Positions 9,605 through 49,793 of a stretch of DNA of 64,000 nt are shown in pieces; the stretch's first letter is position 1, and each line of letters starts with the position of its first letter. This DNA is from a virus. The stretch is taken from positions 96,001 to 160,000 of the IMG/VR virus record IMGVR_UViG_3300022752_005671; one strand, given 5' to 3'. Position numbers and translations under genes: made by a program. Under the pieces are notes generated by a model. It did not search any database, was not told the DNA's origin, and worked only from the letters and a program-made list of their open reading frames with translations.

Positions 9605-11476
9605 ATGAAGACTTTTACAATCGATCAATTAGCGCAAGGCATCCGTGAGAAGCACGTTGGAGCCGAGCGTGCACGTTTAACAGAAAAGTGGAGCCGCACA
9701 GGTCTCCTCCGCGGTCTCGATGGACAACGCCGTGAAATGATGGCACAACTCCTCGAGAACCAAGCTGCTCAAGTCCTCAAGGAGAGCTCATCTCTCTCAA
9801 CAGGCGGAGCTAACGTTACAGGATCTGGCCAAATTCAAGGTTTCAGCAACATTGCATTTCCAATCGTTCGTCGCGTGTTCGGTGGCCTCGTTGCCAACGA
9901 GCTCGTGTCAATCCAACCAATGAGCCTCCCCTCAGGACTCATCTTCTATTTGGATTACACATACGGCACAAACGTTGGTCAACCCGGCGTTGCTGGTTCA
10001 ACATACACCAAGGGACAATCCATTTATAACAACCCCACCGGCCGCGGAGTCCAATCTGGATCTCTTGCAACTGGTGGTATGTATGATCTTGTTGGTTCTG
10101 GTTACTCAAAAGTCACTGGTTCAGCAACTCTTACATTCGATGGAACAATCGTAACAGGTTCTTTCGGTGGAGTAAACGGTGATACATTCTCATCAGGACT
10201 CGTCCTCACAGTAGGAACACAGTTCAGCGGCAGCAACGCTCGCCTCATGGACTTCGATTCTCAAGTTGAGACAGCACTCACAAATAATGACCTCGACACA
10301 ATGTTCGCATTCGTTCCCACATCACAACTCTCTGGTGCAGACCTCCTCGCAGTCGACCAAGTGGCCCTTTTCCAAGGACCAGGCGGCGCAACTGCATGGG
10401 GCGAGACATACCAAGGTGGAACAGGAGTCCTCAACCTTCGCCGCCTTAACAAGCGTGGAGATTGGAACGGTTCAACTTCAACATTCACACCAAACCCACT
10501 CGGCGGATCTCATATCCTCATGGTGATTAAGTGTGCAAACGCTGGTGCATTTAGCACATCTACAGCTGGCAAGGTCTCCTTCGTCAAGTCAGACTCAGTT
10601 TCAGCTCTCGGCGCTGATGCTGCTGGAACAGGTGCAACACTCACAGTTCCATCATTCGAATCTGATTTCGGAACAACACCATCTCCAGCAATCCCAGAGA
10701 TTGATATCAAGATTGAGTCTCTTGCAATCACTGCAACAACCCGCAAGCTACGCGCTCGCTGGTCACCAGAACTTGCACAAGACCTCAATGCATATCACTC
10801 AATGGATGCAGAGGTTGAGCTCACTTCAATCCTCTCTGAGCAAATCGCTCTCGAGATTGATCGTGAAATTCTCAACGACCTCGTTACACAAGCCAACGGC
10901 GCTAACTACTACTGGTCACGCGCTCCAGGCAAGTTCGTCAACAAGACAACAGGCGCTGCAGTAACCCTTGCCTCATCCCTCTCAATCGGACCAGCCTTCA
11001 CCGGTACAGTTCGTGAGTGGTACGAGACACTTGTCGAGACAATCATCGACGTTGCAAACACCATCCACCGCAAGACACTCCGCGGAAGCGCAAACTTCCT
11101 CGTCTGCGGACCAGAAGTTGCAACAGTCCTTGAATCCTCAGTTCTCTACAAGCCCAAGTTCTCCATCGACGGTGAGGGACAAGTTGCTTCTCCATTCACA
11201 ATCGGTGCAGAGGCAATCGGCTCACTCAGCAACCGCTTCACAGTTTACAAGGATCCTTACTTCGTTCGTAACAAGATCCTCGTCGGCTACAAGGGTGGTT
11301 CCTACCTCGAGACCGGCTACGTCTACGCACCATACGTTCCACTCATTGTGACACCAACAATCTTCGCACCAGAGGATTTCACACCACGTAAGGGCGTGAT
11401 GACTCGCTACGGTAAGAAGATGGTTCGTTCCGACTTCTTCGGGACGGTCACATGCTTGGACATGAACATCATCTGA
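9605..11476 (+). CDS. Major capsid protein (T4 gp23-like)
   Basis: gp23 motifs: LLENQ, FPIVRRV, VSIQPMSLPSGLIFYLDY, TRKLRARWSPELAQDLNAYH..DAE.EL..ILSEQIALEIDREI, GYVYAPYVPL, FTPRKGVMTRY. AGGAG SD and strong C-ending codon bias. Confidence 0.97.
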   Translation: MKTFTIDQLAQGIREKHVGAERARLTEKWSRTGLLRGLDGQRREMMAQLLENQAAQVLKESSSLSTGGANVTGSGQIQGFSNIAFPIVRRVFGGLVANELVSIQPMSLPSGLIFYLDYTYGTNVGQPGVAGSTYTKGQSIYNNPTGRGVQSGSLATGGMYDLVGSGYSKVTGSATLTFDGTIVTGSFGGVNGDTFSSGLVLTVGTQFSGSNARLMDFDSQVETALTNNDLDTMFAFVPTSQLSGADLLAVDQVALFQGPGGATAWGETYQGGTGVLNLRRLNKRGDWNGSTSTFTPNPLGGSHILMVIKCANAGAFSTSTAGKVSFVKSDSVSALGADAAGTGATLTVPSFESDFGTTPSPAIPEIDIKIESLAITATTRKLRARWSPELAQDLNAYHSMDAEVELTSILSEQIALEIDREILNDLVTQANGANYYWSRAPGKFVNKTTGAAVTLASSLSIGPAFTGTVREWYETLVETIIDVANTIHRKTLRGSANFLVCGPEVATVLESSVLYKPKFSIDGEGQVASPFTIGAEAIGSLSNRFTVYKDPYFVRNKILVGYKGGSYLETGYVYAPYVPLIVTPTIFAPEDFTPRKGVMTRYGKKMVRSDFFGTVTCLDMNII

Positions 11477-12308: not shown

Positions 12309-12632
12309 ATGAACCGGCGCCGCGCAGGACAACCAAAATTAATTAAAAAACATTGTGAAATTTGTTATTTTGATAAACCTGAAGCAATAAATTTTCATCA
12401 TATCATTCCTAAACGTGACCCACGATGTACAAATGATAATCATAACATAGCGATCGTTTGCCATTCATGTCATGACTTAATTCATGCAGGAAAAATCATA
12501 ATAATAGGCGTGTATTCGTCAACAGGAGGTAGGAAGCTAATGTGGTTCCGCCAAGGAGAAGATCCACCGTTAGAGGAAGAATTCTGGATGGTCAAAGAAA
12601 ATCCTTTGGTAATATTGAGGGGGAAACATTAA
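12309..12632 (+). CDS. Small HNH endonuclease
   Basis: CxxC (CEIC), HHIIP, N..N.AIVCHSCHDLIH: the HNH/zinc-finger pattern. Confidence 0.85.
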   Translation: MNRRRAGQPKLIKKHCEICYFDKPEAINFHHIIPKRDPRCTNDNHNIAIVCHSCHDLIHAGKIIIIGVYSSTGGRKLMWFRQGEDPPLEEEFWMVKENPLVILRGKH

Positions 12633-12638
12633 TCTTTT

Positions 12639-12667
12639 TTTATAAATTTTTTAATGGGAAATATAAT
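12639..12667 (+). promoter_or_regulatory. sigma70-type promoter of the envelope operon, leaderless
   Basis: TTTATA (12639-44), 17-nt spacer, perfect TATAAT (12662-67). ATG 12674 lies 6 nt downstream and has no SD. Confidence 0.65.
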
Positions 12668-12673
12668 TGTTTT

Positions 12674-14143
12674 ATGACCATTAAAAAAGATCTATTTAAA
12701 AAAGGAATCATCACTGCTTCTGCGTTGATTGCTTGTTTGTATGGATGTGAACGTCCGAATCCGTATAAGTTATCGGGTGATACATCTGCAGTTTTTGAAG
12801 ATTGTCCAACTCCGAAATTTCCTGATGAAAACGTTTCTTCGCAAGTTTCATCCACCTCAACCAGCGGAGAGATGACGACAGGAAAGACAGTTGGACCATC
12901 AGTTACAGCAACAGTTGGGACAGGATATCAAGATGAGCAACAACAAGAGCAGACAGAATTAGATAAGAGAGAGTTTGATTATTCTGAAGCATTGAGAACA
13001 GCTAGCATCTTAATTGTTGGAGATGCTCCTACATTGTCTGAGATATATGAACTCGGCGATTTGCCTCTTGAGCAGCAAAAAGCAAAATATGAAGAGTTGG
13101 TTGACAAAAAGCTATCTGATTCTCGATTTGCAGATACACTTATAGAATTCTTTAAGTATACTTTTAAGATGGGCGGAGCAGCTACAATTTCAGGTGAACC
13201 TACTAGAGATACAGCTCCAACGTTTGCAGCTAGGATTGTTTATGAAGAGAAAGATTGGAGAAACATTCTTACTCAAGTTTCTAATACGTGTCCGACATAT
13301 AATGCCACGACAAAGATTTTTACCGATGGAAATTGCATGAATTTACCAGCAGGGATGAATCATTCTGGAATTTTGACAGATCCAGGCGCACAAAGTCTTT
13401 ATTACGGTAATTTGTCATTTCGTCGTAATCGATTTTATCATGAAACTTTTTTATGCAGATCAGGAAATGAGCAATCAGGTGGAGAGCCGACTGACAATCC
13501 ACCGACAGATGCTCCTTGTTCTGGAGGAACATCCATCCCAGGATATCAAAATAAATGGCCTGTTAATGAGATTGCAGGTGTGTGTAATGGTGGCCGCGTA
13601 GATTTTCATGCGTATAATAATTCAAATGTTTGTGCAAATTGTCATGCAACATGGAATCATAGAGCACCATTGTTTAGTCAGTTCGATTCCAAGGGAGTAT
13701 TTCAATCTTTAACACCTGCAGGAGAATATTCGGTATTCGTTCCTGTTGAAGGTTCTCCTAGAGCAAAGTTATCTGATTGGTTATGCATTGGATCTTCATG
13801 CCCTAATGGAGGAAATAATACAACTGCTTGGAAGAAGTCCATGAAAGTTAATGGAGTAGATACATCTGCAAATGCTAACACGATTAATGAGTTAGGACAA
13901 GTTATGTCTCAAGATGATGAAGTCGTAGAATGTGCGGTGAAAAGAATGTGGAACTATGCAATGGGCCGTGCAGATATAACTGAAATAGGAGGACGTTCTT
14001 GGGTCAATTTGCCTGACAGAAATGATCCAAACCCAGAATTAGTTACCATGTCAAAATTGGTCTTGCAATTTAAGAATAACGGATATAATCTAAAGAAAGT
14101 TTTTAGATCCATTCTTGTATCAGAGGATTTTACGAGGTTTTAA
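12674..14143 (+). CDS. Predicted lipoprotein with one CxxCH heme c motif; resembles DUF1588/DUF1585-type proteins
   Basis: Basic N-terminus, hydrophobic stretch and lipobox (LIA-C21 or LYG-C25); Ser/Thr/Gly linker; CANCHATWN...FSQFDSKG; C-terminus EVVECAVKRMWNYAMGR...FKNNGYNLKKVFRSILVSEDF. Start set at ATG 12674 because the longer ORF overlaps the HNH gene. The family call is by recognition only. Confidence 0.7.
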   Translation: MTIKKDLFKKGIITASALIACLYGCERPNPYKLSGDTSAVFEDCPTPKFPDENVSSQVSSTSTSGEMTTGKTVGPSVTATVGTGYQDEQQQEQTELDKREFDYSEALRTASILIVGDAPTLSEIYELGDLPLEQQKAKYEELVDKKLSDSRFADTLIEFFKYTFKMGGAATISGEPTRDTAPTFAARIVYEEKDWRNILTQVSNTCPTYNATTKIFTDGNCMNLPAGMNHSGILTDPGAQSLYYGNLSFRRNRFYHETFLCRSGNEQSGGEPTDNPPTDAPCSGGTSIPGYQNKWPVNEIAGVCNGGRVDFHAYNNSNVCANCHATWNHRAPLFSQFDSKGVFQSLTPAGEYSVFVPVEGSPRAKLSDWLCIGSSCPNGGNNTTAWKKSMKVNGVDTSANANTINELGQVMSQDDEVVECAVKRMWNYAMGRADITEIGGRSWVNLPDRNDPNPELVTMSKLVLQFKNNGYNLKKVFRSILVSEDFTRF

Positions 14144-14144
14144 T

Positions 14145-15152
14145 ATGAAGATTATAAAAAATGGATTATTGTTTAGCGTTGTCCTAGTCGGATCTTTTGC
14201 ATGTGGGTCTAATTCTCCTAACATAGGAGAAGATGAATGTCCAGATCAAAATGAAGTTATTTCATCAACGATAGCAGTACAAGCTTCAACAACTGTCGTA
14301 ACAGCCGGAGCTGGAGGGTCTGTAAATGTTTCTGCGTCATCTTCTGTCACTTCGACTTCGACCGGAGGAGAACCTCAACAAAAATTTGACGTTCCTTCTT
14401 CAGATGAAATTATGTCTCGTTTACATAGCTGTCATAAGCTGTCATATCAACAATTAGGAAATTTTTTAAGAAATAGAGGTGCCTTAATTCCTCCTGGAAA
14501 TGTTTCAGATGTCCGTACAACACAGGTTTCAATTCTTGGTGTAACACAAACATTGGGGTCTATATTTGGTGGCAGCGGAACTTCTTGCGAAATGGCAATA
14601 ACAACAGCCAATGGAACGAATGATCCAGTTTGTCCTGCAGGAGAGGTTTGTTTTTGCAATCAAGACGATAAGATGAATCAAGTAAATCGTAGTTGTTTAG
14701 ATGTTGGAAATAACTCCCCCGACGCAGCTGATGGTTATTGCGTATCAAAGCCTGCAACGGCTGGATATCTTTATTTTTCTGGAAAAGACGCGTTAGGAGT
14801 TCCAAAACTTGATTCTAGATTAGGAGAGAAGGAAGAACACTCAACTGCTTCTGCAATGAAATTAATGGACATCTTCATACAAGCTGCTCCTCAAATTATT
14901 GCAAACATAGGTGATCAAACAAAAGCTCCTGCGTGTACTCTAAACGGAAAAAATAAACAAATGTTTGCAGCAGATGGTAGTTGTGTGGAGGAATCTGTCA
15001 GTTGCTTAATTGGAACGCCTGCTACTGAAGATCACATGCTATTATGTAACTTATTGGTTAGTAAGGCAGATAAAAGTAATTTATCTGATGTTATGAAGAA
15101 GCGAAATATTGCCGTAGCTGTTTTGTTATCTGCAGCGCATTCATGTCAATGA
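14145..15152 (+). CDS. Predicted Cys-rich lipoprotein
   Basis: MKIIKNGLLFSVVLVGSFA-C20; Ser/Thr/Gly-rich linker, then a domain with about a dozen Cys; starts 1 nt after the upstream stop, with a GAGG SD. Confidence 0.7.
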   Translation: MKIIKNGLLFSVVLVGSFACGSNSPNIGEDECPDQNEVISSTIAVQASTTVVTAGAGGSVNVSASSSVTSTSTGGEPQQKFDVPSSDEIMSRLHSCHKLSYQQLGNFLRNRGALIPPGNVSDVRTTQVSILGVTQTLGSIFGGSGTSCEMAITTANGTNDPVCPAGEVCFCNQDDKMNQVNRSCLDVGNNSPDAADGYCVSKPATAGYLYFSGKDALGVPKLDSRLGEKEEHSTASAMKLMDIFIQAAPQIIANIGDQTKAPACTLNGKNKQMFAADGSCVEESVSCLIGTPATEDHMLLCNLLVSKADKSNLSDVMKKRNIAVAVLLSAAHSCQ

Positions 15153-15164
15153 AGGGAAAAGAAA

Positions 15165-16766
15165 ATGGGAAATTGGAAATTAAAGCAACTTAGAGATGAA
15201 CGTCGTAGAACATTTTTAAAGATGTGTACCGTTGCGGCAGCTGCAATAGGTATTGAAAGATCTAGACTTTTAAACTTCCTTGCTGATGAAGGAGGTTATG
15301 GATTGGCAGAAGCAGCTGGTTCAACATATGGGCGATCATTGCTTGTTCCATCTCCAAATGGCGTGTATGCTTGGTTTCAAGAACTTTGGCCAGTTGCAGA
15401 CGTCGGATTGAAAGCATGCCAAAATGCAAATGTTCCCGGATTGTCTTCAAATTTTGGAGGAACGTCTTCATACCTCTACACTTCCCAATATGGATATAAC
15501 CCAGCTAACGGATATCGAGGAACCTATGCTTGGGGTAAAGGTAATCCAATGCCTACATTACCGATGGGGGTAAAAGGATGGAACGGCGGAGATAGATCTT
15601 TCTTTTATAGTCCTCATGCTCCATGGTTTGATCACAACGCTGGAACTCCAAAATATCCTGTGACTGCGTTTATGTCAGGTAAGGATGAAACCCACACAGA
15701 ATTTCCAATTTCTCATATGTCTTTGTCTGGAAATTCATCATTACAAGCAGCGTTAGCTTCTCTTGGTGCAGCTGGGTCATCTGCGATAGTACCTGTTCTT
15801 GGTATAGATCCAGTCAAATATGGTAGAGCTCCTGGTGCCCCAGAAGTTGCCACGGTCCCATCTTCTGCAGGAATGATTGATCTATTTAATTCTGCAGCAA
15901 GCCAATTCGCTTTGGCAACTAAAGTTGACCAAGAGTTGTTTGAAACTTACTATAAGGCATTAGTTGGTCTTAGAAAGTCTTCAGAGAGATCATCATGGGC
16001 TCCGCAAATGTCAATCACGAAGAATGCTGCTAGAATCATTGGTCTTAATTTCGCATCGCAACTTACTCCTACGAGTCAAGATCTTACAGATTTCGGTATC
16101 CAAGACATGATTGATAGCATTAATGCATCATCTACGTATATGACTTCAACTCAAAGAAATGGTATTGAAGAATTTGGTAGAACACTAATCGTTGTGGCAA
16201 AGGCATTCTCATTAGGTCTATCCAAAACTGCCATCGTAGCCTTATCCCCAGGTCCAACCTCCGATACGACCTTCACAGACCCCCACGTTACATTTGATAA
16301 TATGACCTTAATGAACCAGGGTCGAAATACCACAAAACATTTAGGGAAGGTTCTGGATGGCTTCTACAACTATCTATCTCAACAGGTAGATCCTGAAAGT
16401 CCAACTGAAAAGCTGGATAAGAGTACTGTGTTCGTTGCATATGGCGATACGCCGCACACCCCGCTTGTCGGAAATACCTGGCCTGATGCAACTCCTGATG
16501 CTTGTAATTGGATGTACGTCATGGACCCAAGAGGGCACATCAAGAACGGATGGTTCGGTCACGTGTATGCCAATAAAGTTGGAGGTAAAAATGCAGTTGG
16601 ATTTAATCCTCTAACCGGTGTTGATGACATGACGAAAACTTCTGAACAAGTTTCTTCTTTTGGATCGACAGCGACAGTGTTTGCAGTTGCAAATGGAGAT
16701 TCAAATAAGACTTCAGAATATGGAAATTCTCCAAACGTAGTTTCTGCTTTGATTAATCAAAAGTAA
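15165..16766 (+). CDS. Tat-signal protein, DUF1501/DUF1552-like
   Basis: Twin-arginine motif RRTFLK followed by MCTVAAAAIGI; possible AEA cleavage at residues 48-50; TVFVAYGDTPHTP resembles the DUF1501 V..GEFGRTP segment. The Tat motif is clear; the family call is tentative. Confidence 0.65.
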   Translation: MGNWKLKQLRDERRRTFLKMCTVAAAAIGIERSRLLNFLADEGGYGLAEAAGSTYGRSLLVPSPNGVYAWFQELWPVADVGLKACQNANVPGLSSNFGGTSSYLYTSQYGYNPANGYRGTYAWGKGNPMPTLPMGVKGWNGGDRSFFYSPHAPWFDHNAGTPKYPVTAFMSGKDETHTEFPISHMSLSGNSSLQAALASLGAAGSSAIVPVLGIDPVKYGRAPGAPEVATVPSSAGMIDLFNSAASQFALATKVDQELFETYYKALVGLRKSSERSSWAPQMSITKNAARIIGLNFASQLTPTSQDLTDFGIQDMIDSINASSTYMTSTQRNGIEEFGRTLIVVAKAFSLGLSKTAIVALSPGPTSDTTFTDPHVTFDNMTLMNQGRNTTKHLGKVLDGFYNYLSQQVDPESPTEKLDKSTVFVAYGDTPHTPLVGNTWPDATPDACNWMYVMDPRGHIKNGWFGHVYANKVGGKNAVGFNPLTGVDDMTKTSEQVSSFGSTATVFAVANGDSNKTSEYGNSPNVVSALINQK

Positions 16767-16920
16767 AAACTAATTATTCTATTTCATTTTTATTATCAAG
16801 CGGTCAGCAACGATCTCTCGATTTTTCTTTTCTTGTACACGGAATGCCGTTATTAGTATCCTTTCTACTACCGGCAACAAGCCGACATTGAATAAATTTA
16901 AATAATTGGAGAATAAGTTT

Positions 16921-17187
16921 ATGCCAAAGAATAAGAAGACAGTTGTAAAGACAAACAAGAATGCAACAATCCGGACACGCAGAGATCGAACTGGTAAGCT
17001 TCGCACAGAGACAGCTCGCCGCGATGATGGATTTAATGCAGCTCTTACGACAGACGTTCGTAATGATTCGACTCGATTCTTCATTGATTTTGATCAACAG
17101 ACTGTTGAGTTTAGTGGTCGCGAGGCTCGCACGCTTTATCGACTTCTTCGTACTCATTACGCTTACACTGGTAAGCCACGCCGTTGA
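16921..17187 (+). CDS. Small basic hypothetical protein
   Basis: GGAG SD 9 nt before ATG 16921; Arg/Lys/Thr-rich; followed by a terminator. Confidence 0.7.
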   Translation: MPKNKKTVVKTNKNATIRTRRDRTGKLRTETARRDDGFNAALTTDVRNDSTRFFIDFDQQTVEFSGREARTLYRLLRTHYAYTGKPRR

Positions 17188-17209
17188 GACTTACTTAGTT
17201 AGCTTATGT

Positions 17210-17240
17210 GGAGAGGCCGCAAGACCTCTCCTTTTATTTT
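17210..17240 (+). terminator. Rho-independent terminator
   Basis: GGAGAGG-ccGCAAga-CCTCTCC followed by TTTTATTTT. Confidence 0.85.
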
Positions 17241-17258
17241 TATAGGAGGTACGTTGAA

Positions 17259-18491: not shown

Positions 18492-19280
18492 ATGGTTCAA
18501 ATAATTCGATTAGGATCAACAGGACTAGATGTTGAAAAGTGGCAAATATTCTTAAGAGGATTGTCACAAAATAGTTCTATCATCGTAAATGGAAATTTTG
18601 ATTCATTTACTGAAAGAGAAACAAAGGCATTTCAATCTAAGAAAGGGTTAGTTCCTGATGGAATTGTTGGACCCAAAACGTTGGCAATTGCATTACAGTC
18701 AGGATATCCCTTAATGGATGATCCAACGTCAGACATTAATGGTCCAAATTGGCCGCCTCGTCCTGCGATCGGACCATTAAGCGTAGTTGATCGCGAAAAA
18801 CTTTTTGGAAGATTTACGTATATTTCATCGCCGACATTTGCAAATCCAGAAGCCATAACGATTACTGGCAGCTGGATTCAAAACAATATATCTTCAGTAA
18901 AAATTCCTGAGTTAAGCGGAGTTGCTGGTGCACCTTCTTCTTGTAACATTCAAATTCATTCATTTTTATCAAATCAAATGATGAATCTATTTAAAGCTTG
19001 GGATAAAGAAGGATTAAAATATTTGATGATGTCTTGGGGAGGATCTTGGAGCCCCCGTTTCATTAGAGGATCAAGAACAACATTATCAAACCATGCTTGG
19101 GCGACTGCGTTTGATATTAACGTTCAATGGAACCAGCTTGGTGCACAACCTGCATTACGAGGAGAAACTGGCTCAGTTAGAGAACTTGTAGAAATTGCAT
19201 ACGATCATGGGTTTTATTGGGGCGGTTGGTTTCCAAAAAGACCTGACGGAATGCATTTTGAAGCCTACAAAATCATTTAA
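18492..19280 (+). CDS. Modular endolysin: peptidoglycan-binding domain plus M15-family Zn peptidase
   Basis: N-terminal IRLGSTGLDVEKWQ...FQSKKGLVPDGIVGPKT (PG_binding_1); catalytic SNHAWATAFDIN (SxHxxxxAxD) and WGG.F...DGMHFE. Confidence 0.9.
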   Translation: MVQIIRLGSTGLDVEKWQIFLRGLSQNSSIIVNGNFDSFTERETKAFQSKKGLVPDGIVGPKTLAIALQSGYPLMDDPTSDINGPNWPPRPAIGPLSVVDREKLFGRFTYISSPTFANPEAITITGSWIQNNISSVKIPELSGVAGAPSSCNIQIHSFLSNQMMNLFKAWDKEGLKYLMMSWGGSWSPRFIRGSRTTLSNHAWATAFDINVQWNQLGAQPALRGETGSVRELVEIAYDHGFYWGGWFPKRPDGMHFEAYKII

Positions 19281-26182: not shown

Positions 26183-29100
26183 ATGGCTGAGCAGGTTTTT
26201 AGGTCTCCTGGGTTTTTTGAGAGAGAAATTGAATTAAAAGCACCACCTACTGGAGGTCCATCAGGTGTACCAGCTGGTGTAATTGGTATGTCAAATAAGG
26301 GTCCGGCATTTGTGCCAGTGACTGTTGCAACTTTTAATGAATTCGTTAGCATTTTTGGTAATCTTGATCCAAAGAAGTTCGGTCCTTATGCTGTAAATGA
26401 ATTTTTAAAGAACAGAACTGCTCTTACTTATATGAGAGTACTCGGCGCTGGAGCAAACAAGAATTCAACAGACATTTCTTCAACTTCAGTGACTGGCAGA
26501 GTAAAAAATGCAGGTTTTAAGTTAGAGGGAAACGTATCAGCCCATGATTCTAAGGCACGTCATAATGGTGCAGTACAATTTTTAGTTGCAGACCATACTC
26601 TTCAAACTAATGAAGCGTATGGGATGCCTATGTTTACAGACAACGATTCTCGTACCTCAGCAACAAACGTTAATTTAGTTCGCGGCGTTGTTATGTTAGC
26701 TTCTGGTGCAAGAATGATGGTTCTTGATGGAAACGAAAGCGTTCCAGCTGCATTCATTGGGGCAACAACTGTAGATGATGCAGCACAAGTAAAAAGCGGA
26801 AAATTTAAGTTGATTATTTCTTCGGCACTTGGATCAACTTATGCATTTGATGATAAGATTCCTGGAGTTAAGATTTATACTGCTTCAATGAATCCATCAA
26901 ACGTGGATTATTTTGCGAAAGTATTGAATAGAGACCCTGAAAAATTTGAGCAATATCAACACGTTCTTTATTCAGATTTTGCAGTTGATGATGAAGTTGC
27001 ATCAGTGGTCAATGATGATTATGTTGCAGTATTATCAGGTTCATCATTAACAAGCAACGTTTCTGGAGAACCAACTACTGAATTTAGAAAAGCATTTGGA
27101 GCATATGATACAAGATTCTCGTCTCCAAAAACTTCTTATTTCATTTCTCAACCTTTCGGAACAACAGAATATGATTTGTTCCAAATTGAGTCTCTTGATG
27201 ATGGAGCTTATGCTAATAGCCTCTATAAGGTTTCTATTTCAAATCTTAAAGTTTCTGAAAATGAAGCTTATGAATATGGAACATTCAACGTTCAAATTCG
27301 CGATTGGAACGATACCGACATCAATCCTTCTGTCATCGAAGAATTTGTAAATTGTTCATTAGATCCTGATTCAGATAACTACATCGGAAAAGTTATTGGT
27401 GATCGTAAGGTAACTTACGATTTTGATCAAGATATAGTTTCTGAAAGAAGAATTATCACGAGTGGTAAGTATGATAACGTTTCAAAGTACGTTAGAGTTG
27501 TCATTTCTCAAGATGTTGAAGATAAGAAAGTTCCTGCTAAATCACTACCATTCGGATTTAGAGGTCCAGAACTTTTGAAGACTAATGATGCTTTAACTGA
27601 TGGAGCCACAAGCGCAAAGAGATTAGCTGGAGTGTTTAGCGTTGACGCTGTAGGAATTCTATCACAATCAATTCTTCCACCGGTTCCATTTAGATTTAAG
27701 GTTACAAAAGGACCGATGACGTCTCCTGCTTGGGACGGTGATCCAGGACCTCAAGAAGTAGCTTCTCCTCAATTCTATTGGGGCGTCAAATTTGAAAGAA
27801 ATGATGTTCCACTTAACGTAAACCTTTCTGAAGTAAAAAATTCGCTTCTAGAGAGCTATACAAAATTTGCAGGTATCAAAAAGCTTGATGTTCTTGTAAC
27901 TGGATCTGGAGCAGATACATTTAACAACAACAAGTTCTCATTGTCTAAGGTTGCATTCTCTGCTGGAACGATTGCTGGATTAACAGGAACCGTTCGATCT
28001 CACATGAAAGAAGCAGCTTATATCAGAAATGCAAAAGTTGATCCAACAGCATATACGATAAATGATCCTACTCTAGGAAACAGAATAACATTTGCATCTC
28101 TGCTATCAAACGGAGAACCTTATGAGTTCAACAAATATTCATCATTTGCTAAATTCACGACATTTATGCAAGGCGGATTTGATGGATTAAACATTCTAGA
28201 CCCTGCAGCGTCAAGAATGAATGATAAGGCAACATCATTTGAAACTCCTCTTGGCGGAGCTTCATCAACATTTGTATCACCTGGAATGTTGACAAACCTT
28301 GCCGGCGTTGGTGTTGATAACAACGCCGTCAATTCTTACATAACTGCAGTTGATGTTATGACAGATCCTCTTCAAGTTAATGTCAACTTGTTAGCACTTC
28401 CTGGTATCCGTGAAGATTACATCACAAATTACACTGCAAAGAAAGTTCGTGATTATGGCCTTTCAATGTACGTAATGGATCTTCCAAATTATGATGATAA
28501 TGATGGTAGAATTTATGATGATTCAACAAATAGAATTAACATAGAAAACACCGCCGCGACATTTGAAGCAAGATCATTCGACAACAACTACGTTGCTGCT
28601 TACTTCCCAAATGTTTACGTAAATGATGAAACTAACAAACGTTATGTTAAAGTTCCTTCATCAGTTGCTGCTTTAGGAGCTTTAGGATTCAATGACAGAG
28701 TTGCATATCCATGGTTTGCACCAGCAGGATTTAATAGAGCAGCTCTAGATTTCGTCAACAACGTTGAAGTTAGATTGAATGTTTCTGATAGAGATAGACT
28801 TTATGATGCTAGAATCAATCCGATTGCAACATTCCCACGATTGGGATTTGTGATTTACGGACAAAAGACTCTTCAAATAAGAAAGTCTGCTCTTGATAGA
28901 GTCAACGTTCGTAGACTTCTTCTTGAAGTTAAGAGATTAATCATTAACATTGCAAATAGAATCGTGTTTGAACAAAACACCCCCGCCGTTAGAAACAAGT
29001 TTGTTGCTGATTCAGTTCTTCAATTAGGACTTATTCAAGCGCAAGCTGGTATCGAGGCATACCAAGTTGTGATGAATGAAACAAACAATACGCAAGAAGA

Positions 29101-29209
29101 CGTCGATCTAAACAGATTGAACGGTAGAATCGTTGTTGTTCCAACTAGAGCAATAGAATTCATTGCAATTGACTTTATTGTCACAAATGCAGGAGTTCAG
29201 TTCGTTTGA
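26183..29209 (+). CDS. Tail sheath protein 1 (gp18-like)
   Basis: SPGFFEREI, GPAFVPVTV..FNEF..IFG, YPWFAPAGFNR, YGQKTLQ...SALDRVNVRRLL, VPTRAIEFIAIDF. Confidence 0.93.
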   Translation: MAEQVFRSPGFFEREIELKAPPTGGPSGVPAGVIGMSNKGPAFVPVTVATFNEFVSIFGNLDPKKFGPYAVNEFLKNRTALTYMRVLGAGANKNSTDISSTSVTGRVKNAGFKLEGNVSAHDSKARHNGAVQFLVADHTLQTNEAYGMPMFTDNDSRTSATNVNLVRGVVMLASGARMMVLDGNESVPAAFIGATTVDDAAQVKSGKFKLIISSALGSTYAFDDKIPGVKIYTASMNPSNVDYFAKVLNRDPEKFEQYQHVLYSDFAVDDEVASVVNDDYVAVLSGSSLTSNVSGEPTTEFRKAFGAYDTRFSSPKTSYFISQPFGTTEYDLFQIESLDDGAYANSLYKVSISNLKVSENEAYEYGTFNVQIRDWNDTDINPSVIEEFVNCSLDPDSDNYIGKVIGDRKVTYDFDQDIVSERRIITSGKYDNVSKYVRVVISQDVEDKKVPAKSLPFGFRGPELLKTNDALTDGATSAKRLAGVFSVDAVGILSQSILPPVPFRFKVTKGPMTSPAWDGDPGPQEVASPQFYWGVKFERNDVPLNVNLSEVKNSLLESYTKFAGIKKLDVLVTGSGADTFNNNKFSLSKVAFSAGTIAGLTGTVRSHMKEAAYIRNAKVDPTAYTINDPTLGNRITFASLLSNGEPYEFNKYSSFAKFTTFMQGGFDGLNILDPAASRMNDKATSFETPLGGASSTFVSPGMLTNLAGVGVDNNAVNSYITAVDVMTDPLQVNVNLLALPGIREDYITNYTAKKVRDYGLSMYVMDLPNYDDNDGRIYDDSTNRINIENTAATFEARSFDNNYVAAYFPNVYVNDETNKRYVKVPSSVAALGALGFNDRVAYPWFAPAGFNRAALDFVNNVEVRLNVSDRDRLYDARINPIATFPRLGFVIYGQKTLQIRKSALDRVNVRRLLLEVKRLIINIANRIVFEQNTPAVRNKFVADSVLQLGLIQAQAGIEAYQVVMNETNNTQEDVDLNRLNGRIVVVPTRAIEFIAIDFIVTNAGVQFV

Positions 29210-29232
29210 TCTAAAAATTCTTATGTAATTTG

Positions 29233-29240
29233 ATACTTAT
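29233..29240 (+). promoter_or_regulatory. Putative late-promoter motif ATACTTAT (sheath 2)
   Basis: 26 nt upstream of ATG 29267; the same octamer as before sheath 1. Confidence 0.5.
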
Positions 29241-29266
29241 CAAGCAAGTTGTAGGAGCGAAAATAA

Positions 29267-32200
29267 ATGGCACAGCTCAAATTCGGAAGCGCAGGAGTAA
29301 CGACAAGAGAAATTGATTTAACAGGACCCGTTTCGGCGTCTCCTTCAGGTGTTCCTGCAGGGATAATTGGAACATCAGTTAAAGGACCGGCATTCGTTCC
29401 TTTAACATACGGTACATTGAGCGATTTCTTTGCAAAGTTTGGTGAAAGTGATTCTAAGAAATTTGGACCGATGGCGGTAGCAGAATGGATGAAGAGAGCT
29501 ACTTCCGTAACTTACCTTAGAGTTTTAGGCGTAGGTGATGGAAAGAAAAGAGTAGCTAGCGGCCAATCTGCAGGTGACGTAACAAATTCTGGATTTACTG
29601 TTGGTGAACAACTTCCTTCTTCCAATGGAACGTTATCATCTAACACATATGCAAATTCTGAAGGCGTTTTAGGAAGAACATACTTCTTGGGATGCTTCAT
29701 GTCAGAATCTGCAGGATCTAACGTCTTTAACGCAGCTGGATTACAAGGAACAGGAAGCGTTAATGGAATTGGATTGAACACTGCTGTGCCAATTGTTCGA
29801 GGAATTTTAATGGCTCCATCTGGAGTTATTTTAAGATTATCAGCTTCTGCTGTAGGGTTGGATTCAAGCAAGCCTTCTTCAACTTTGGTCGGAAATGATG
29901 AATCTGCAAAAGGAACATCTTTAGGTTCTCTTGTCTTAGGATCAGGAACATCCGCAAAACAAGAATTTACCATTTTGCTAAATGGACATAAGGGAACAGA
30001 CTCTTCATATCCAAATGTTCTTACTGCTTCTTTCGATGTGACTGCAGCAAATTACATCAGCAAAGTTTTAAATACTGATCCTTATAAGATTCAACAAGCT
30101 GGTCATTATCTTGCTGCACACTGGGATATTCATCCAACTTTAGCAGTGGTAACTGGCGTAGGCGTAGTATCTGCAGTACCAGTTAATCAAAGCGAAAGAT
30201 CAGCATTCTTGTTAACTTCATCATTATCAAGAAATGTTGGATCTTCTACTGTTCCTAACTATGAAGGATTTAGAGATAGATTCTCTAATGGTAAATCGCC
30301 TTGGGTCGTATCACAAAAGTTTGGTGGATCTCAAGTAAACTTATTCAAACTTCATTCATTGGATGCAGGAGCTGGAATCTCTAATAAGTTTAAGATTTCT
30401 ATTTATAATATTGTTCCTTCATCAGATCCATTAAACAAATATGGTTCATTTAGCTTAGCTGTAAGAAGCCTAACTGACACAGACATTGATCAAAAAGTTC
30501 TTGAGCGTTGGGAAGGACTTAACCTAGATCCTTCATCTGATAGATACATCGGCAAGGTCATTGGAGACGTTAATGCTTATTATGACTTTGATAGAGATGA
30601 TGCAGCTCAAAAGCTTGTCATTGAAGGAAATTATGAACTAAGATCTAGATACATTAGAGTTGAAGTATCAACCGCAGTTGCTGAACAAGCTGTTGATCCA
30701 ACAGCTCTTCCAATGGGATTTAGAGGAATTTCTCACTTAGTTACGTCAGGTTCAGCTCCTCTTGCCTCACTAGGCGGAGTAGATGCATCTGCATTATCTA
30801 ATTCTACATTTACAAGAAACACCGTTGAACCTCCTCTTCCATTTAGAAATCATTTAAATGACGGAACCGGCCAACAAACTCAAGTAAATTCAAGATATCA
30901 CTGGGGAGCTAAGTTTGAACACATTACAAGCTTAACAGAACAAAACAGTTCAGTTCTTCAAGATAAGTCTTTCAACAGCTTTACGAAACATTTCCCAGGA
31001 CATTCAACATCTAATGTCAATTTTGTGGTTGGTGATAATTCTGGTGTAGCTGATACAGCACAAAATGGTATCATTGATGCAGACAGGTTCTGCGGCAATT
31101 TATTCACATTAGAAAACATCAAGATCACGACTGGATCCAACGGAACAGTCGCTCAAAATGATGATTGGAAATATGCATCTTATGTCAGAAATGGTAACAT
31201 AGTTGCAGATGACGTAGCAAAGACTCGTGCTGTTCAAGTCAGTGATCTTTCTAATTCTCAAAATCGTAAATTCCTTAAGTTCTCATTCATTATGCAAGGC
31301 GGATTTGATGGTGTTAACATTTTTGATAAGGATGAATCAGAGATTAATAACGCAGCAGTAGTTGCGGATATGGATGATGCTAACAGAGGAAGATCATCAG
31401 GTCCAAACGTATCTGCATACGTCAAGGCTCTTGAAGTGATGAAGAACACAACCAATGTTGACATCCAACTCTTAGCAATTCCAGGAATTCGTGCACCAAT
31501 TGTTACAGATGAAGCAATAAGAGCAACAGAAGAACGTTTCGATGCACTTTATATCATGGACATTGAACAAGTTGACAAGGATGGAAATCTTATCAATATC
31601 ACTTCAAACGTCAAGCCATCCGTCACGGAGACAGTTGCACAACACAAGGCAAGAAACCTTAATACATCATTTGCTGCATCTTACTTCCCAGACGTATTAA
31701 TTAAGGATCCTTCACTTCAAACTAACTCAGTCATTGTTCCACCATCCGTCGTCGTGATGGGAGCATTGGCATTGAATGACGCCTTAGGATATCCATGGTT
31801 TGCACCAGCAGGATTAACAAGAGGAGAACTTCCATCAACGTTAGAGACAAGCATTCAGCTTAAGGATGCAGATCTTGATTCTCTATATGATGAAGACATC
31901 AACCCTCTATATGCTCCTGCAACTGCAACCCGCGGAGGAACAAATCCAAAGGGAGGAGTTGTTGTGTGGGGACAGAAGACGATGCTTCAATCAGCATCTG
32001 CGCTTGATAGAATCAACGTAAGACGTCTTCTCATTGATATTCGCCGTCAAGTTCGTGAGATTGCTCAAACAATCATCTTCGAACCAAACCGCGAGGCAAC
32101 TCTTGCAAGATTCACCGCAGCAGTCACTCCAAGACTTCAAAGAATTCAAGCTCTTGCTGGACTTGAGAGATTCCGCGTTATCATCGACTCTTCTACGACA

Positions 32201-32320
32201 ACGCAACAAGACGTCGAGAATAACACAGTTCGTGGTAAGATCTTCTTACAACCCACCAAGACGATTGAGTTCGTTTCATTGGACTTCGTTGTGGCCAACA
32301 ACCTTCAACAAGTACAATGA
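29267..32320 (+). CDS. Tail sheath protein 2
   Basis: SAGVTTREID, GPAFVP, YPWFAPAGLTRG, VWGQKT...SALDRINVRRLL, QPTKTIEFVSLDF. Confidence 0.93.
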   Translation: MAQLKFGSAGVTTREIDLTGPVSASPSGVPAGIIGTSVKGPAFVPLTYGTLSDFFAKFGESDSKKFGPMAVAEWMKRATSVTYLRVLGVGDGKKRVASGQSAGDVTNSGFTVGEQLPSSNGTLSSNTYANSEGVLGRTYFLGCFMSESAGSNVFNAAGLQGTGSVNGIGLNTAVPIVRGILMAPSGVILRLSASAVGLDSSKPSSTLVGNDESAKGTSLGSLVLGSGTSAKQEFTILLNGHKGTDSSYPNVLTASFDVTAANYISKVLNTDPYKIQQAGHYLAAHWDIHPTLAVVTGVGVVSAVPVNQSERSAFLLTSSLSRNVGSSTVPNYEGFRDRFSNGKSPWVVSQKFGGSQVNLFKLHSLDAGAGISNKFKISIYNIVPSSDPLNKYGSFSLAVRSLTDTDIDQKVLERWEGLNLDPSSDRYIGKVIGDVNAYYDFDRDDAAQKLVIEGNYELRSRYIRVEVSTAVAEQAVDPTALPMGFRGISHLVTSGSAPLASLGGVDASALSNSTFTRNTVEPPLPFRNHLNDGTGQQTQVNSRYHWGAKFEHITSLTEQNSSVLQDKSFNSFTKHFPGHSTSNVNFVVGDNSGVADTAQNGIIDADRFCGNLFTLENIKITTGSNGTVAQNDDWKYASYVRNGNIVADDVAKTRAVQVSDLSNSQNRKFLKFSFIMQGGFDGVNIFDKDESEINNAAVVADMDDANRGRSSGPNVSAYVKALEVMKNTTNVDIQLLAIPGIRAPIVTDEAIRATEERFDALYIMDIEQVDKDGNLINITSNVKPSVTETVAQHKARNLNTSFAASYFPDVLIKDPSLQTNSVIVPPSVVVMGALALNDALGYPWFAPAGLTRGELPSTLETSIQLKDADLDSLYDEDINPLYAPATATRGGTNPKGGVVVWGQKTMLQSASALDRINVRRLLIDIRRQVREIAQTIIFEPNREATLARFTAAVTPRLQRIQALAGLERFRVIIDSSTTTQQDVENNTVRGKIFLQPTKTIEFVSLDFVVANNLQQVQ

Positions 32321-32374
32321 AAATAATTGATAAAAATGTTTGATATATTCAAGCATTTTAATATCAAATAATTT

Positions 32375-32406
32375 TTAAGGGCTTCTTATGAGGCCCTTAA
32401 TTTTTT
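32375..32406 (+). terminator. Terminator between sheath 2 and sheath 3
   Basis: TTAAGGGCTTC-TTAT-GAGGCCCTTAA (11 bp, one G-U pair) followed by TTTTTT. Confidence 0.85.
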
Positions 32407-32472
32407 GTTTTGAAATCTTGGTTATATAGATTAAAAAGCAACATAGTTATGAACCAAGAGAAGTTTATTTAA

Positions 32473-35400
32473 ATGTCGCAAGTCAAGTATAATAGCCCAG
32501 GAGTTACTGTTAATGATGCCGGAGTAATTCCTAGATTAAATAGAAATATAATTTCAACTCCTACTGTTATTGTAGGGACTTCTCATATGGGTCCTGCATA
32601 CGTTCCTGAAGGATTTTCTAAAACCGTTGAATTTCAAGATCTGTTCGGGATTCCTAATATTTCTGGGTCTATAGTTTCTTCTGATAAACGTTTTACTGAT
32701 TATGGAGCGTTGGCTGTTCAAGAATGTATAAACAATGGATCTTCTGCAACATTTATTAGAGTTTTAGGAGCAGGTAATTGTAAAAAAAGAATTGAAACAG
32801 GGACGACTGCAGGAGATGTAGTAAACGCTGGATTTACTGTTGGAGAAGAACAACCAGATCAAGCAAACTTTTCTGGATCTCTTAGTAAAAATCCATACGC
32901 AAATGAAGGTGGCGTTTTAGGAAGAACATACTTCTTAGGCTGTTTCATGTCTGAATCAGCAGGTTCGAACGTTTTTAATGCCGCGGGCCTACAAGGAACA
33001 GGAAGCGTTAACGGCATAGGGATTAATACTTCAGTTCCGATTATTAGAGGTATTTTAATGGCTCCATCAGGAGTTATTTTAAGGTTATCTTCATCTGCGG
33101 TTGCATATGATTCTTCAGGACCTTCTTCTACACAAATCGCTTCTGAAACTTCAGCAAAAGGAACTACAATAGGTTCTATCGATCTACTTTCAGCCGGCGA
33201 CAAATCTCAACAATTTATTATGTTGTTAAACGGCCACAAAGGTTCTGATGATTATCCGAATGTTATAACTGCATCTCTAGATATGCAATCTCCATTTTAT
33301 ATAACTAGAGTTTTTAACATGACTGCTTCTTTGATACAAAGGGCAGGACATTATTTAGCTTCTCATTGGGATATACATCCAGCAGTCGCTACGTTAACAG
33401 GGGTCGGTGTAGTGAGCTCCGGCGCAGGAGCGCCGAGCGATTCTTCAAGGGTATTTTCAACTGAAAGATCTGTATTTTTATTAACGTCTTCTTTACAGAG
33501 AGACGTTGGGTCTTCTACTGTTCCAAATTTTGAAGGATTTAGAGATAGATTTTCTCATGCATCAACTCCATGGATTATTTCTCAAAAAATTCATGGAAAG
33601 TACGTTAATTTATTTAAATTACATTCATTACATGATGGAGAACAACACAAAAATTATAAGATTGTAATTCATGATATAACCCCACCATCAGATGAAAAAT
33701 CTTCAAGATTTGGGACTTTTAGTATTTCTATCAGAGATATTAATGATTTTGATGAAACTTCAAAATCATTGCAAACATTTGCTAACGTAGACTTAAACCC
33801 ATCTTCAGATATGTTTATTTCAAAAGTGATAGGAGATATTAACAAATATTTTGATTTTGACAGACCAGATGATGATCAAAGACTGGTCGTAGAAGGAAAT
33901 TATCCAAATAATTCCGTATATGTTAGGGTTGAAGTATCTGATGAAGTATTAAACAATAAAATTAGTAATAATACTCTTCCGATGGGATTTAGAGGGATAT
34001 CTCACATTGTAACGTCAGGTTCATCAGTATTGGCACCACTAGGAGGCCAAGATTCTTCAGCTTTATTAAATTCTTATTTTTTACGAAATTTAGTAACCCC
34101 TCCTTTGCCTCTCTGTAATAATATTTTTGTTGTTAACAATTCAAAAAAAGAACCTTCGTCTAACAGAAGGTGGGGAATAAAGTTCGATCATATAATCAAT
34201 CAAGAGAAACAAAATAATTTTAAGCATATTGATGAATCAATTCTTAGTTTTATAAAACATTATCCATCTCATTCTACGGTGAACGTTAATTTTTCAGTTT
34301 CTAATAACCATGGGACTTCTGATACGCCTCAGCTTGGAATAATAGATGCTGATAGATTTTGTAACAATCTTTTTACTCTAGAAAATATAAAAGTTTTGAC
34401 AGGATCGATTAACGATTCCAATAACACGATAACAGATAATTGGCAATACGCGAGTTATGTTAGAGACGGTAACATATCAATTAATGACAGCGAGAAGACT
34501 AGAAGAGTCAGTGTAGATGATTTAAAAAATCCAATCAATAGAACATTTTTATCATTTCAAACGATGTTATGCGGCGGTTTTGATGGAACAAATATCTTTG
34601 ATTTAAATGAATCTAATTTCACGAATTTAGCAGTAATTGCAGATATGAATGATCAAAAAAGAGGAAAGCAATCCGCTTCAACAACGGCTGCTTACTTAAA
34701 AGTTTTAGAAATGCTAAGAAGTCCTACAGTGACTGACATGCAAATCTTAGCAATACCCGGAATACGATCTCCTGCAGTTACGGATGAAGCCATTGACGTT
34801 GCAGAAAGCAGAATGGACTGTTTGTACATATTGGACATCGAACAAATTGGTAAAAATGATGAACAAGTGCAAATTTCTGAAATCATTGCATACGATGAAC
34901 AGTTTAAACCAGACTTACAAAAAACGATTAGAAATTTTGATGATAGAGCATTAAATACTTCTTATGCAGCAGGATATTATCCAGATGTTGAATTAGAAAT
35001 TGATGCACCGACATATAAAATTAATTCAATTATCGTACCTCCCTCAGTCGCAGTTGTAGGAGGATTAGCGGCAAATGATTCTTTAGGAAATGTATGGTTT
35101 TCTCCATCTGGAAACTCTAGAGGATCTTTAAGAAAAGTTATCTCGACAACAGTTTCTTTAAGTAAATCAGATATAGATTCTTTGTATAAAAGCAACATTA
35201 ACTTTTTATACGCTCCTTCTAACGTCGGAGGTCAAGGAACTGGAGTTATTATAGGAGGACAAAAAACATTAAATAGATCAAGTTCTTCTTTGTCTAGAGT
35301 TAACGTAAGAAGATTATTAATTGATATCAGGAGCCGTGTAAGAAACGTTGCTTTGAACATATTGTTTGATTCAGATAGAGAAACAGCGACAGCTAGATTC

Positions 35401-43889: not shown

Positions 43890-43904
43890 TATAAATTAAA
43901 GATA

Positions 43905-44192
43905 ATGAAAACACCGACCAAACAAGAATATTTTAAAATTTTACGTTCTAATCCCGAGTATCTTTCTTTATTAAAAAAAATTCCAGAAGCTCATGAAAGA
44001 AAGAAGACTATTAATATCGTAGAGTATGTTGCTGGAAATATATACGATGCATTGATTATGATGAATGCTTCGTCAAAGCAAAATCCTGAAATTTTGGATA
44101 AAATATCAGAGGCTTTGAAAACAGGTGATGGCATAATTAAAGAAAACGATGGTAATCCTGTCGTTCAAAATCAAGATAAAAAAGAAAAGTGA
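43905..44192 (+). CDS. Hypothetical protein
   Basis: 95-aa ORF tightly packed between the TMP and the 1760-aa gene. Confidence 0.65.
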   Translation: MKTPTKQEYFKILRSNPEYLSLLKKIPEAHERKKTINIVEYVAGNIYDALIMMNASSKQNPEILDKISEALKTGDGIIKENDGNPVVQNQDKKEK

Positions 44193-44199
44193 GATTTAA

Positions 44200-49482: not shown

Positions 49483-49484
49483 AC

Positions 49485-49784
49485 ATGGCAGCATTTAGTC
49501 GATACAGGACCTCTCCGAAACTTGGATTTAGCTTTCAGTATGGAACGTATAGAGGAATTGCTGCAGTAAGAAATGCAGTTGCCGCTGGGCTAATTCCAAT
49601 AAATCAAACAATAACGTTGGCAGAAAATCAACGATTGGATCAGCTTGCTGCAATATATTACAAAGATGCAAGATTTTGGTGGGTTCTTGCCGCGGCGTCT
49701 GACATCGGGTGGGGCTTGCAAGTTCCTCCTGGGACAATAATAAACATTCCTGATATTAACGCTGTCGCAGCAATAGTTGCATAA
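49485..49784 (+). CDS. LysM-like baseplate protein (gp53/gpX-like)
   Basis: NQRLDQLAAIYYKDARFWWVLAAASDI...PPGTIINIP. Confidence 0.85.
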   Translation: MAAFSRYRTSPKLGFSFQYGTYRGIAAVRNAVAAGLIPINQTITLAENQRLDQLAAIYYKDARFWWVLAAASDIGWGLQVPPGTIINIPDINAVAAIVA

Positions 49785-49793
49785 TAAACGTTT

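Follow-up and report, generated by a model that had tools for sequence, protein, structure and literature searches.

In Proteobacteria, genes for DUF1800 proteins form pairs with genes for DUF1501 proteins. In Planctomycetota, Verrucomicrobiota and Myxococcota, genes for PSCyt3/PSD proteins (DUF1588, DUF1592, DUF1585) are paired with genes for DUF1552 (HXXSHH) proteins that are exported by the twin-arginine translocation (Tat) pathway (He et al. 2017, PMC5615132), and PSD4/DUF1592 always accompanies PSCyt3 (PMC5615132, Text S1). Comparable modules combine PSCyt1/PSCyt2/PSD1 (DUF1549/DUF1553) genes with DUF1501 genes (Kamneva et al. 2012, PMC3542564). In a single genome of Planctomycetota or Verrucomicrobiota, modules of PSCyt/PSD and DUF1501/DUF1552 genes number in the tens, and no function has become known for them since their first description (PMC3542564, PMC5615132). 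Here we analyse three adjoining phage genes, g1, g2 and g3 (the trio), that encode a haem-motif lipoprotein, a Cys-rich lipoprotein and a Tat-signal protein and lie in a 64,000-nucleotide stretch of DNA (the window), corresponding to bases 96001-160000 of the 187,069-bp IMG/VR virus record IMGVR_UViG_3300022752_005671 (CheckV completeness 52%). We consider it likely that the trio is a host-derived operon from Polyangiaceae that is kept by a sub-lineage of freshwater T4-like phages, and that its products form one membrane-tethered enzyme complex in the envelope or periplasm of the infected cell. A preliminary description of the same DNA knew of no phage module of this kind, and we likewise found none described in the literature searched. 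What is new is the predicted binding between g2 and g3 and the natural fusions of g1 with g2; the type of module itself is already known.

Results

The three open reading frames (ORFs) are co-directional on the + strand and are located between the major capsid gene and the endolysin gene. g1 (12674-14143) encodes a predicted lipoprotein of 489 amino acids that combines a Ser/Thr/Gly linker with a single CxxCH motif and a DUF1585 (PSD2) domain, g2 (14145-15152) a predicted lipoprotein of 335 amino acids (lipobox Cys20) whose linker is disordered and whose helical core is rich in Cys and His, with 12 further invariant Cys, and g3 (15165-16766) a Tat-signal protein of 533 amino acids with a predicted alkaline-phosphatase-superfamily fold. 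The g1-g2 and g2-g3 gaps measure 1 nt and 12 nt, compared with 1-33 nt and 12-18 nt in phage relatives. The ORF coordinates, together with head genes upstream and endolysin, adaptor and sheath genes downstream, agree with the preliminary description, which had reported three closely spaced + strand genes inserted between head and tail modules. Its start of the unit at 12639 had to be corrected, as alignment with bacterial homologues places the real g1 ATG at 12674 and the stretch 12639-12667 is AT-rich and promoter-like.

Homologues of all three proteins are numerous and lie on shared contigs. The order g1-g2-g3 was found in ~78 bacterial loci with a guanine-plus-cytosine (GC) content of 57-74%, belonging to Polyangiaceae, Labilitrichaceae, Kofleriaceae and unclassified Myxococcota and including the cultured species Minicystis rosea, Labilithrix luteola, Chondromyces apiculatus and Polyangium species, as well as in 33 IMG/VR contigs (GC 36-47%) with g3 80-97% identical. 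Synteny elsewhere was a test set beforehand, and these loci show the trio to be linked in bacteria and viruses alike, its homologues not being unlinked virion proteins. On the phage contigs the order is always capsid gene, usually an HNH gene, and then g1-g2-g3, with the endolysin gene next in most contigs that are long enough. The DNA derives from freshwater or lake settings in at least 3 studies, and reference phages gave no DNA or protein match for the cassette. The closest bacterial copies, with g3 70-77% identical, are found in freshwater metagenome-assembled genomes at a fixed chromosomal locus, flanked by clpB/gidB on one side and by GH35/42 and mrp antiporter genes on the other. Cultured Polyangiaceae carry only 1-2 copies of the trio per genome, and one bacterial genome contains a tandem duplicate.

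In a FastTree phylogeny, all 24 distinct phage g3 sequences formed one clade (Shimodaira-Hasegawa-like support 99) that is nested in freshwater Polyangiaceae. The GC content at third codon positions (GC3) is 0.22-0.30 in the phage genes versus 0.81-0.88 in the bacterial orthologue; amelioration is complete, and the capture is therefore old. Among phage copies, the ratio of nonsynonymous to synonymous substitution rates (dN/dS) is 0.086 for g1, 0.131 for g2 and 0.058 for g3, compared with 0.167 for the capsid gene. For most of these phage pairs dS is close to saturation; in the closest pair, where it is unsaturated (dS 0.37-0.57), the values were 0.056, 0.069 and 0.038 for g1, g2 and g3, respectively, and 0.186 for the capsid gene. 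The trio is under stronger purifying selection than the capsid gene. Nested in a host clade, flanked by viral genes and under purifying selection, it is a set of phage auxiliary genes.

The cassette is accessory, being absent near the capsid gene in 21 of the 26 capsid relatives that have at least 7.5 kb of sequence downstream of this gene, including phages with capsids 78-81% identical. Phage L232, represented by a 200-kb contig with a capsid 80% identical, carries a distant version of the trio in the same hot spot (identities 32%, 39% and 34%), in which the lipoboxes, the CxxCH and the Tat motif are intact. Its g3 falls with a different Polyangiaceae clade, and a single phage clade was rejected (delta log-likelihood 430; approximately unbiased test, p 1e-24) in a 34-row IQ-TREE analysis for which the tested group was named after the tree had been seen. 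This second version is present in 3 viral contigs; it surfaced through a capsid-based scan, while IMG/VR pattern scans using the g3 and g1 alignments returned the close clade only. These phylogenies indicate that phages captured the trio at least twice, independently.

We examined the export signals of the three proteins, which the preliminary description had given as lipoboxes in g1 (C21/C25) and g2 (C20), both followed by Ser/Thr/Gly linkers, a single CANCH motif in g1 and an RRTFLK twin-arginine peptide in g3; all were recovered, and the lipobox cysteines, the CxxCH and the Tat motif proved to be conserved in the respective families. The lipoprotein and Tat calls are backed by rule-based and profile checks. 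For the lipoboxes we applied a scripted PROSITE-style rule, which asks for a Cys at 15-35, a hydrophobic core and a Lys or Arg within the first 7 residues. The g1 lipobox region (12734..12748, + strand) contains Cys21 and Cys25, the latter invariant in 22 homologues. The window g1 passes the rule at Cys21, and Cys25 fails solely because Cys21 sits at -4; 19 of 22 g1-family proteins pass. The CANCH haem c attachment motif (13631..13645, + strand; residues 320-324) has C320, C323 and H324 invariant in the 22 homologues and is followed by invariant N328, H329 and R330. A match to DUF1585/PSD2 (PF07624) at 13877..13969 on the + strand (residues 402-432) scored above its cut-off (26.5 versus 25.8 bits, E 5.4e-6), and many g1 homologues carry this domain too. 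DUF1588/PSCyt3 (PF07627) matched weakly over residues 309-344, which span CANCH (14.2 bits versus a cut-off of 27), as did DUF1549/PSCyt2, and neither PSD4/DUF1592 (PF07631; E up to 10) nor PSD5 was found in g1. The nearest Atlas clusters of g1 carry PSD2, PSCyt2, PSCyt3 and PSD4, with PSD4 present in 14-100% of their members. With its invariant CxxCH and Sec-type signal, g1 is a candidate c-type cytochrome.

In g2, Cys20 is invariant and conforms to the lipobox rule, as do 18 of 20 family members. The other invariant residues are 12 Cys, H94, H232 and H297, and H332 is conserved at 90% or more. In the structural model, residues 1-82 have a predicted local distance difference test score (pLDDT) below 50, and the core, residues 96-335, is mostly of high confidence; the folded part (residues 84-335) is encoded by 14394..15149 on the + strand. 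The C-terminal ~135 residues form the conserved core of the family and include most of the predicted contacts with g3. An exhaustive profile search of 1.84 billion representatives retrieved 214 clusters at E <=0.001, making this a small family, and no Pfam, NCBIfam, PHROG or PADLOC family was assigned to g2. Its model gave no match in the PDB at a Z of 5 or more, and a weak likeness to PSD1/DUF1553 and DUF1800 among Atlas models.

The twin-arginine motif of g3, RRRTFLK (residues 13-19), is encoded by 15201..15221 on the + strand. R14, R15 and F17 are invariant and an RRxFLK-type motif is present in 22/22 homologues; TIGR01409 matched g3 at 16.7 bits, exactly its cut-off, and the Pfam family TAT_signal (PF10518) matched 13 of 22 homologues (best E 2.3e-4). 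The AlphaFold model of g3 (pLDDT 75, predicted template modelling score 0.79) was compared with solved structures using an exhaustive aligner. The best match was the sulfatase 9ihk_D (Z 11.7, root mean square deviation 4.0 over 256 residues), and all top 48 matches (Z 8 or more) belong to the alkaline-phosphatase superfamily, comprising sulfatases, nucleotide pyrophosphatases, phosphoethanolamine transferases and alkaline phosphatases. A Foldseek search of the PDB gave a weak match (E 0.07). Among predicted structures, g3 is closest to a Myxococcota DUF1501 cluster, with template modelling (TM) scores of 0.58/0.65, compared with 0.48/0.56 for a DUF1552 cluster.

At the sequence level, PF07586 (DUF1552) and PF07394 (DUF1501) had no match in g3 at E up to 10, nor in its 22 homologues at E up to 1. 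Alignment of the g3 profile with hhalign was non-significant both for five DUF1501 proteins (probability 1.9%, E 0.025, 36 columns), where it spanned only a strand and the GDTPHTP/GDFGRTP loop, and for three Polyangiaceae DUF1552 proteins (probability 0.5%, E 0.11), where likewise only the strand ahead of the GDTPHTP loop aligned. The g3 profile retrieved only its own 1-2 copies in genomes with 3-8 DUF1501 matches, and a PDB sequence search with it yielded chance matches only and no related solved structure. Given the missing family match, the non-significant profile alignments and the missing sulfatase motif, g3 therefore belongs to an uncatalogued branch of the Tat-exported proteins with an alkaline-phosphatase fold. 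The kinship to DUF1588/DUF1585 and DUF1552/DUF1501 proteins that had been suggested earlier is thus borne out in part: in g1, DUF1585 is above cut-off and DUF1588 is weak, and g3 shares the fold of the Tat proteins without being a sequence member of their families. Sequence conservation points to T176 (conserved at 90% or more) and invariant H177, D372, H374 and D428 as candidates for the metal-binding Asp/His set and the nucleophile of g3.

To address the relationship between g2 and g3, we predicted the structure of a complex of g2 residues 84-335 and g3 residues 53-533. Three runs gave values of 0.83, 0.82 and 0.83 for the interaction prediction score from aligned errors (ipSAE), and the best of 3 controls gave 0.00; the same mark was reached by 58 of 80 solved complexes and by 2 of 110 mismatched pairs. 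The runs share at least 89% of contacts, and the partners have a pLDDT of at least 79. No similar solved complex was found by sequence. On this modelling, g2 and g3 are predicted to bind each other. The predicted docking surface for g2 is a helical insert of g3 (15789..16040, + strand; residues 209-292) with the motifs LFNSAAS and ETYYKA, which bears the most conserved motifs of the family and whose segment 254-283 is of low confidence in the monomer model. The contact surface on g2 comprises residues 94-98, 202-248 and 294-334. Columns with a conservation of 90% or more are over-represented in both predicted interfaces, at 41% versus 19% in g3 (p 0.0015) and 45% versus 27% in g2 (p 0.018).

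Three longer matches to the g2 family are natural g1-g2 fusions in bacteria, and in the 2 fusion contigs examined a gene of g3 size follows the fusion gene after 12-18 nt. In the L247 fusion, the end of g1 passes straight into the g2 core without the g2 signal peptide, and the downstream gene encodes a Tat g3 homologue that is 39% identical. A fourth longer match resembles a g2-g3 fusion. Taken together, the predicted g2-g3 complex and the g1-g2 fusions with a g3 gene behind them suggest that the classical two-gene module, made up of a PSCyt/PSD protein and a Tat-exported enzyme, is split over three genes in the trio. The earlier proposal that the three products build one complex is supported by the controlled g2-g3 prediction and the natural g1-g2 fusions.

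We also inspected the window for expression signals around the trio. An AT-rich element at 12639..12667 (+ strand), consisting of a thymine run and TATAAT (10/12 sigma-70-type match), stops 7 nt upstream of the g1 ATG, and g1 has no Shine-Dalgarno sequence. A thymine run with a TAT(A/T)AT-like hexamer 7-9 nt upstream of the g1 ATG is found in most phage copies (window 12620-12673 and the same position in L087-L118), and the element may be a phage promoter with a very short leader. g2 is coupled to g1 via the 1-nt gap, and g3 has a Shine-Dalgarno sequence. The T4-type late promoter TATAAATW is not enriched in the window (8 observed versus 9.5 expected). No terminator-like hairpin was found at the g1-g2 or g2-g3 junctions, the sole weak match inside the trio being at 12774-12788 within g1; beyond g3, the first such hairpin that has a T-tail is found at 17210..17241 on the + strand.

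The gene order in the window, which has a GC content of ~38%, is large terminase, portal, prohead protease, gp23-type capsid, HNH, trio, endolysin, adaptor, sheath stabiliser and sheaths. This content, from terminase to three sheath paralogues, therefore identifies the virus as a distant T4-like myovirus. The gp23-type major capsid protein (9605-11476, 623 amino acids) has its best relatives in uncultured phages, Microcystis phages and Flavobacterium phages; its gene has a GC content of 0.51 and a GC3 of 0.48 inside the 38% GC genome, and the gp23 profile matches two separate stretches. The HNH endonuclease gene (12309..12632, + strand) flanks the cassette and occupies this locus in related phages whether or not they carry the trio. 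The same HNH (60-79% identical) lies 3' of the capsid gene in such relatives (L232:18101-18460, L170:13340-13699), upstream of the first version of the cassette and downstream of the second. This pattern suggests a recombination hot spot that was used twice for gene gain.

Downstream of g3, 440 nt (16767-17207) contain only short or antisense ORFs, and relatives differ in how far g3 lies from the next conserved gene (orf191), with distances of 0.4 to 3.8 kb. The M15/peptidoglycan-binding endolysin gene (18492-19280) follows, and then the head-tail adaptor and sheath stabiliser genes. We considered whether the trio is a spanin or lysis cassette, in which a small outer-membrane lipoprotein and an inner-membrane partner adjoin holin and endolysin, and rejected this, as the proteins are 335-533 amino acids long and orthologous to chromosomal operons, and the endolysin gene lies 1.7 kb downstream with unrelated ORFs between. 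Three tandem tail-sheath paralogues of 1008, 1017 and 1041 amino acids occupy 26183-35598; full-length identities among them are 27-33%, and each matches the sheath PHROG at its C-terminus. Directly after the third of them, a homing or HNH endonuclease gene (552 amino acids) is encoded on the - strand at 35595-37253, and three very large + strand ORFs of 1464, 1760 and 1115 amino acids are found at 39495-53141. Rfam and tRNA scans of the window gave no matches. On the bacterial side, distant operons add a fourth conserved upstream gene of ~400-440 amino acids (L162:5645-6850, L161:5531-6805, L001:4250-5572), which has no Pfam family, overlaps the g1 start in 2 of the 3 loci and is missing from both phage versions. 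Genes for flavin adenine dinucleotide (FAD)/pyridine-nucleotide oxidoreductases or DHOR also lie near distant bacterial operons.

Discussion

Our data favour a host-derived operon from Polyangiaceae whose products act together in the envelope of the infected cell. For the export routes, haem loading, g3 metal content, the complex in vivo, its chemistry and the benefit to the phage, we infer the following model. g1 would be exported unfolded through Sec, lipidated and loaded with haem c at CANCH by the maturation system of the host, and g2 would be exported through Sec, lipidated and disulfide-bonded. g3 would fold in the cytoplasm, probably with metal, before crossing the membrane through Tat, and would then dock via its conserved helical insert on the C-terminal domain of g2. 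g1 and g2 would work as a unit and be the counterpart of the single PSCyt/PSD protein in the classical modules, with g3 as the catalytic subunit of phosphatase/sulfatase/transferase-type fold and g1 binding the substrate or relaying electrons. Most probably the phage version performs the task of its host counterpart, and it would maintain or increase this envelope activity during infection.

Several observations weigh against this model. Beyond its Tat signal, g3 matches no Pfam, NCBIfam, PHROG or PADLOC family. The C/S-x-P-x-R formylglycine motif of sulfatases was not found in g3, and on a reading of the sequence its first strand shows no clear equivalent of the N-terminal Asp that is the canonical metal ligand in DUF1501-type proteins; catalysis is therefore a prediction, and g3 could be a binding protein rather than an enzyme. 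The complex prediction covers the g2-g3 pair only, and every fusion protein is a singleton cluster. The assignment of the host to Polyangiaceae draws only on the apparent origin of the genes, and the GC gap between the phage (~38%; clade 36-47%) and the Polyangiaceae donors (63-71%) is very large. In addition, metabolic helper genes are not usually located among late structural genes, as this cassette is, and no RNA run was listed as containing this stretch.

The preliminary description had put forward superinfection exclusion, manipulation of the envelope or of contact behaviour, and redox or metal capture as candidate purposes of the module. Instead of sustaining a host activity, a late envelope complex might alter or mask the receptor, and thereby block a second infection and free progeny from debris, a form of superinfection exclusion or receptor destruction that we regard as unlikely. 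The T5 lipoprotein Llp, for instance, inactivates FhuA. Two lipoproteins and an exported enzyme, all envelope-directed, would fit such a role, as would the position of the cassette in the late/structural block ~1.7 kb upstream of the endolysin gene, the envelope-decorating transferases MCR-1, EptA, LtaS and BcsG in the fold family (Z 8.3-9.8), and a cassette that was acquired twice and is accessory among the capsid relatives. However, the probable hosts already encode the 70-77% identical operon at a conserved locus, and the phage therefore adds more of an existing activity and not a new one; moreover, all family-invariant residues are kept, no phage-specific signal change was seen and no PHROG or PADLOC family matched. 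Nutrient scavenging is a special case of the model outlined above with its chemistry specified: g3, as a Tat-exported hydrolase of phosphatase type, would free periplasmic phosphate or sulfate for the synthesis of a large genome in nutrient-poor lakes. The auxiliary genes pstS and phoA of cyanophages offer a parallel, and PhoD, PhoX and PlcH are exported by Tat. The alkaline-phosphatase-superfamily fold, the Tat export, the freshwater/lake DNA and the size of the phage (a 187-kb record that is 52% complete) all agree with it, yet known phosphatases feature neither a haem c partner nor a docking lipoprotein rich in Cys, the sequence of g3 matches none of the PhoA, PhoD, PhoX or sulfatase families and lacks the sulfatase motif, and the bacterial neighbour genes are not those of a phosphate regulon, so that we give this version little credence.

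The location of the cassette within the structural block could also mean that the trio was recruited as virion proteins, serving as head or tail decoration or adhesins, and g1-type proteins elsewhere often have binding modules (PMC5615132, PMC3542564). Against this, every phage copy strictly retains the Sec/lipobox and Tat signals, which direct the proteins away from the site of T4-like virion assembly, the cytoplasm, no PHROG structural family matched, and the orthologues are chromosomal bacterial genes, which makes a virion role highly improbable. Least credible of all is that the trio is neutral passenger DNA hitchhiking with the neighbouring HNH homing endonuclease. The HNH gene does adjoin the cassette, with a homologue on the other side of the second version, but the same HNH is present in relatives without the trio, dN/dS values of 0.04-0.13 are below that of the capsid gene, amelioration is complete and none of the 33 contigs carries a disrupted copy.

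Returning to the envelope complex of host origin, the low-copy trio, with its strong selection in phages, two captures, predicted g2-g3 interface and fusions, offers a compact system with testable contacts. With it, the range of phage auxiliary genes grows to include an entire exported operon dependent on the Sec/Lgt-Lsp, Tat and cytochrome c maturation systems of the host, and Polyangiaceae become a host marker for abundant, uncultured large freshwater T4-like phages. A bolder idea, which is doubtful at present, is that phages captured a complete machine of cytochrome-lipoprotein and Tat enzyme at least twice in order to rework the host surface or periplasm, for instance by means of a haem-dependent complex that modifies receptors or processes glycans. 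If true, this would be the first phage-borne c-type cytochrome complex and a minimal three-part model for the PSCyt/PSD-DUF1501/DUF1552 modules, which have been functionally unassigned since 2004.

How does the trio compare with known systems? Among phage genes, it resembles the pstS/phoA genes of cyanophages in being host-derived, under purifying selection, directed to act outside the cytoplasm and accessory within its phage group, and differs from them in being a whole operon, with a c-type cytochrome-motif lipoprotein and a Tat substrate, inside the structural block. It shares with the T5 Llp/Cor family that phage-encoded lipoproteins are targeted to the envelope; unlike the trio, the latter are small single proteins without an orthologous host operon, and no sequence relation between the two was found.

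The bacterial modules are closer. As in the PSCyt1/PSCyt2/PSD1-DUF1501 and DUF1800-DUF1501 modules, a cytochrome-motif protein adjoins a twin-arginine protein. The g3 model is nearest a DUF1501 cluster, g2 is weakly like PSD1/DUF1553 and DUF1800 models, and the g1-g2 fusions restore the two-gene layout of the PSCyt1/PSCyt2/PSD1-DUF1501 type, whereas g3 has no PF07394 match and the trio is split over three genes. With the PSCyt3/PSD-DUF1552 modules, the trio has in common the DUF1585 of g1 above cut-off, the weak DUF1588 over CxxCH and neighbour clusters carrying PSCyt3, PSD4 and PSD2. Its partner g3 is likewise predicted to be Tat-exported and has the same fold type (TM 0.48/0.56), and an N-terminal g3 strand, PNG...W-P, resembles Polyangiaceae DUF1552 proteins when read by eye. 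In contrast to these modules, g3 lacks a PF07586 match and g1 is short, with no PSD4 or PSD5 match; the trio adds the Cys-rich lipoprotein g2 between the pair, both partners of g3 are predicted lipoproteins, and the trio occurs in 1-2 copies per genome rather than in tens and is carried by phages.

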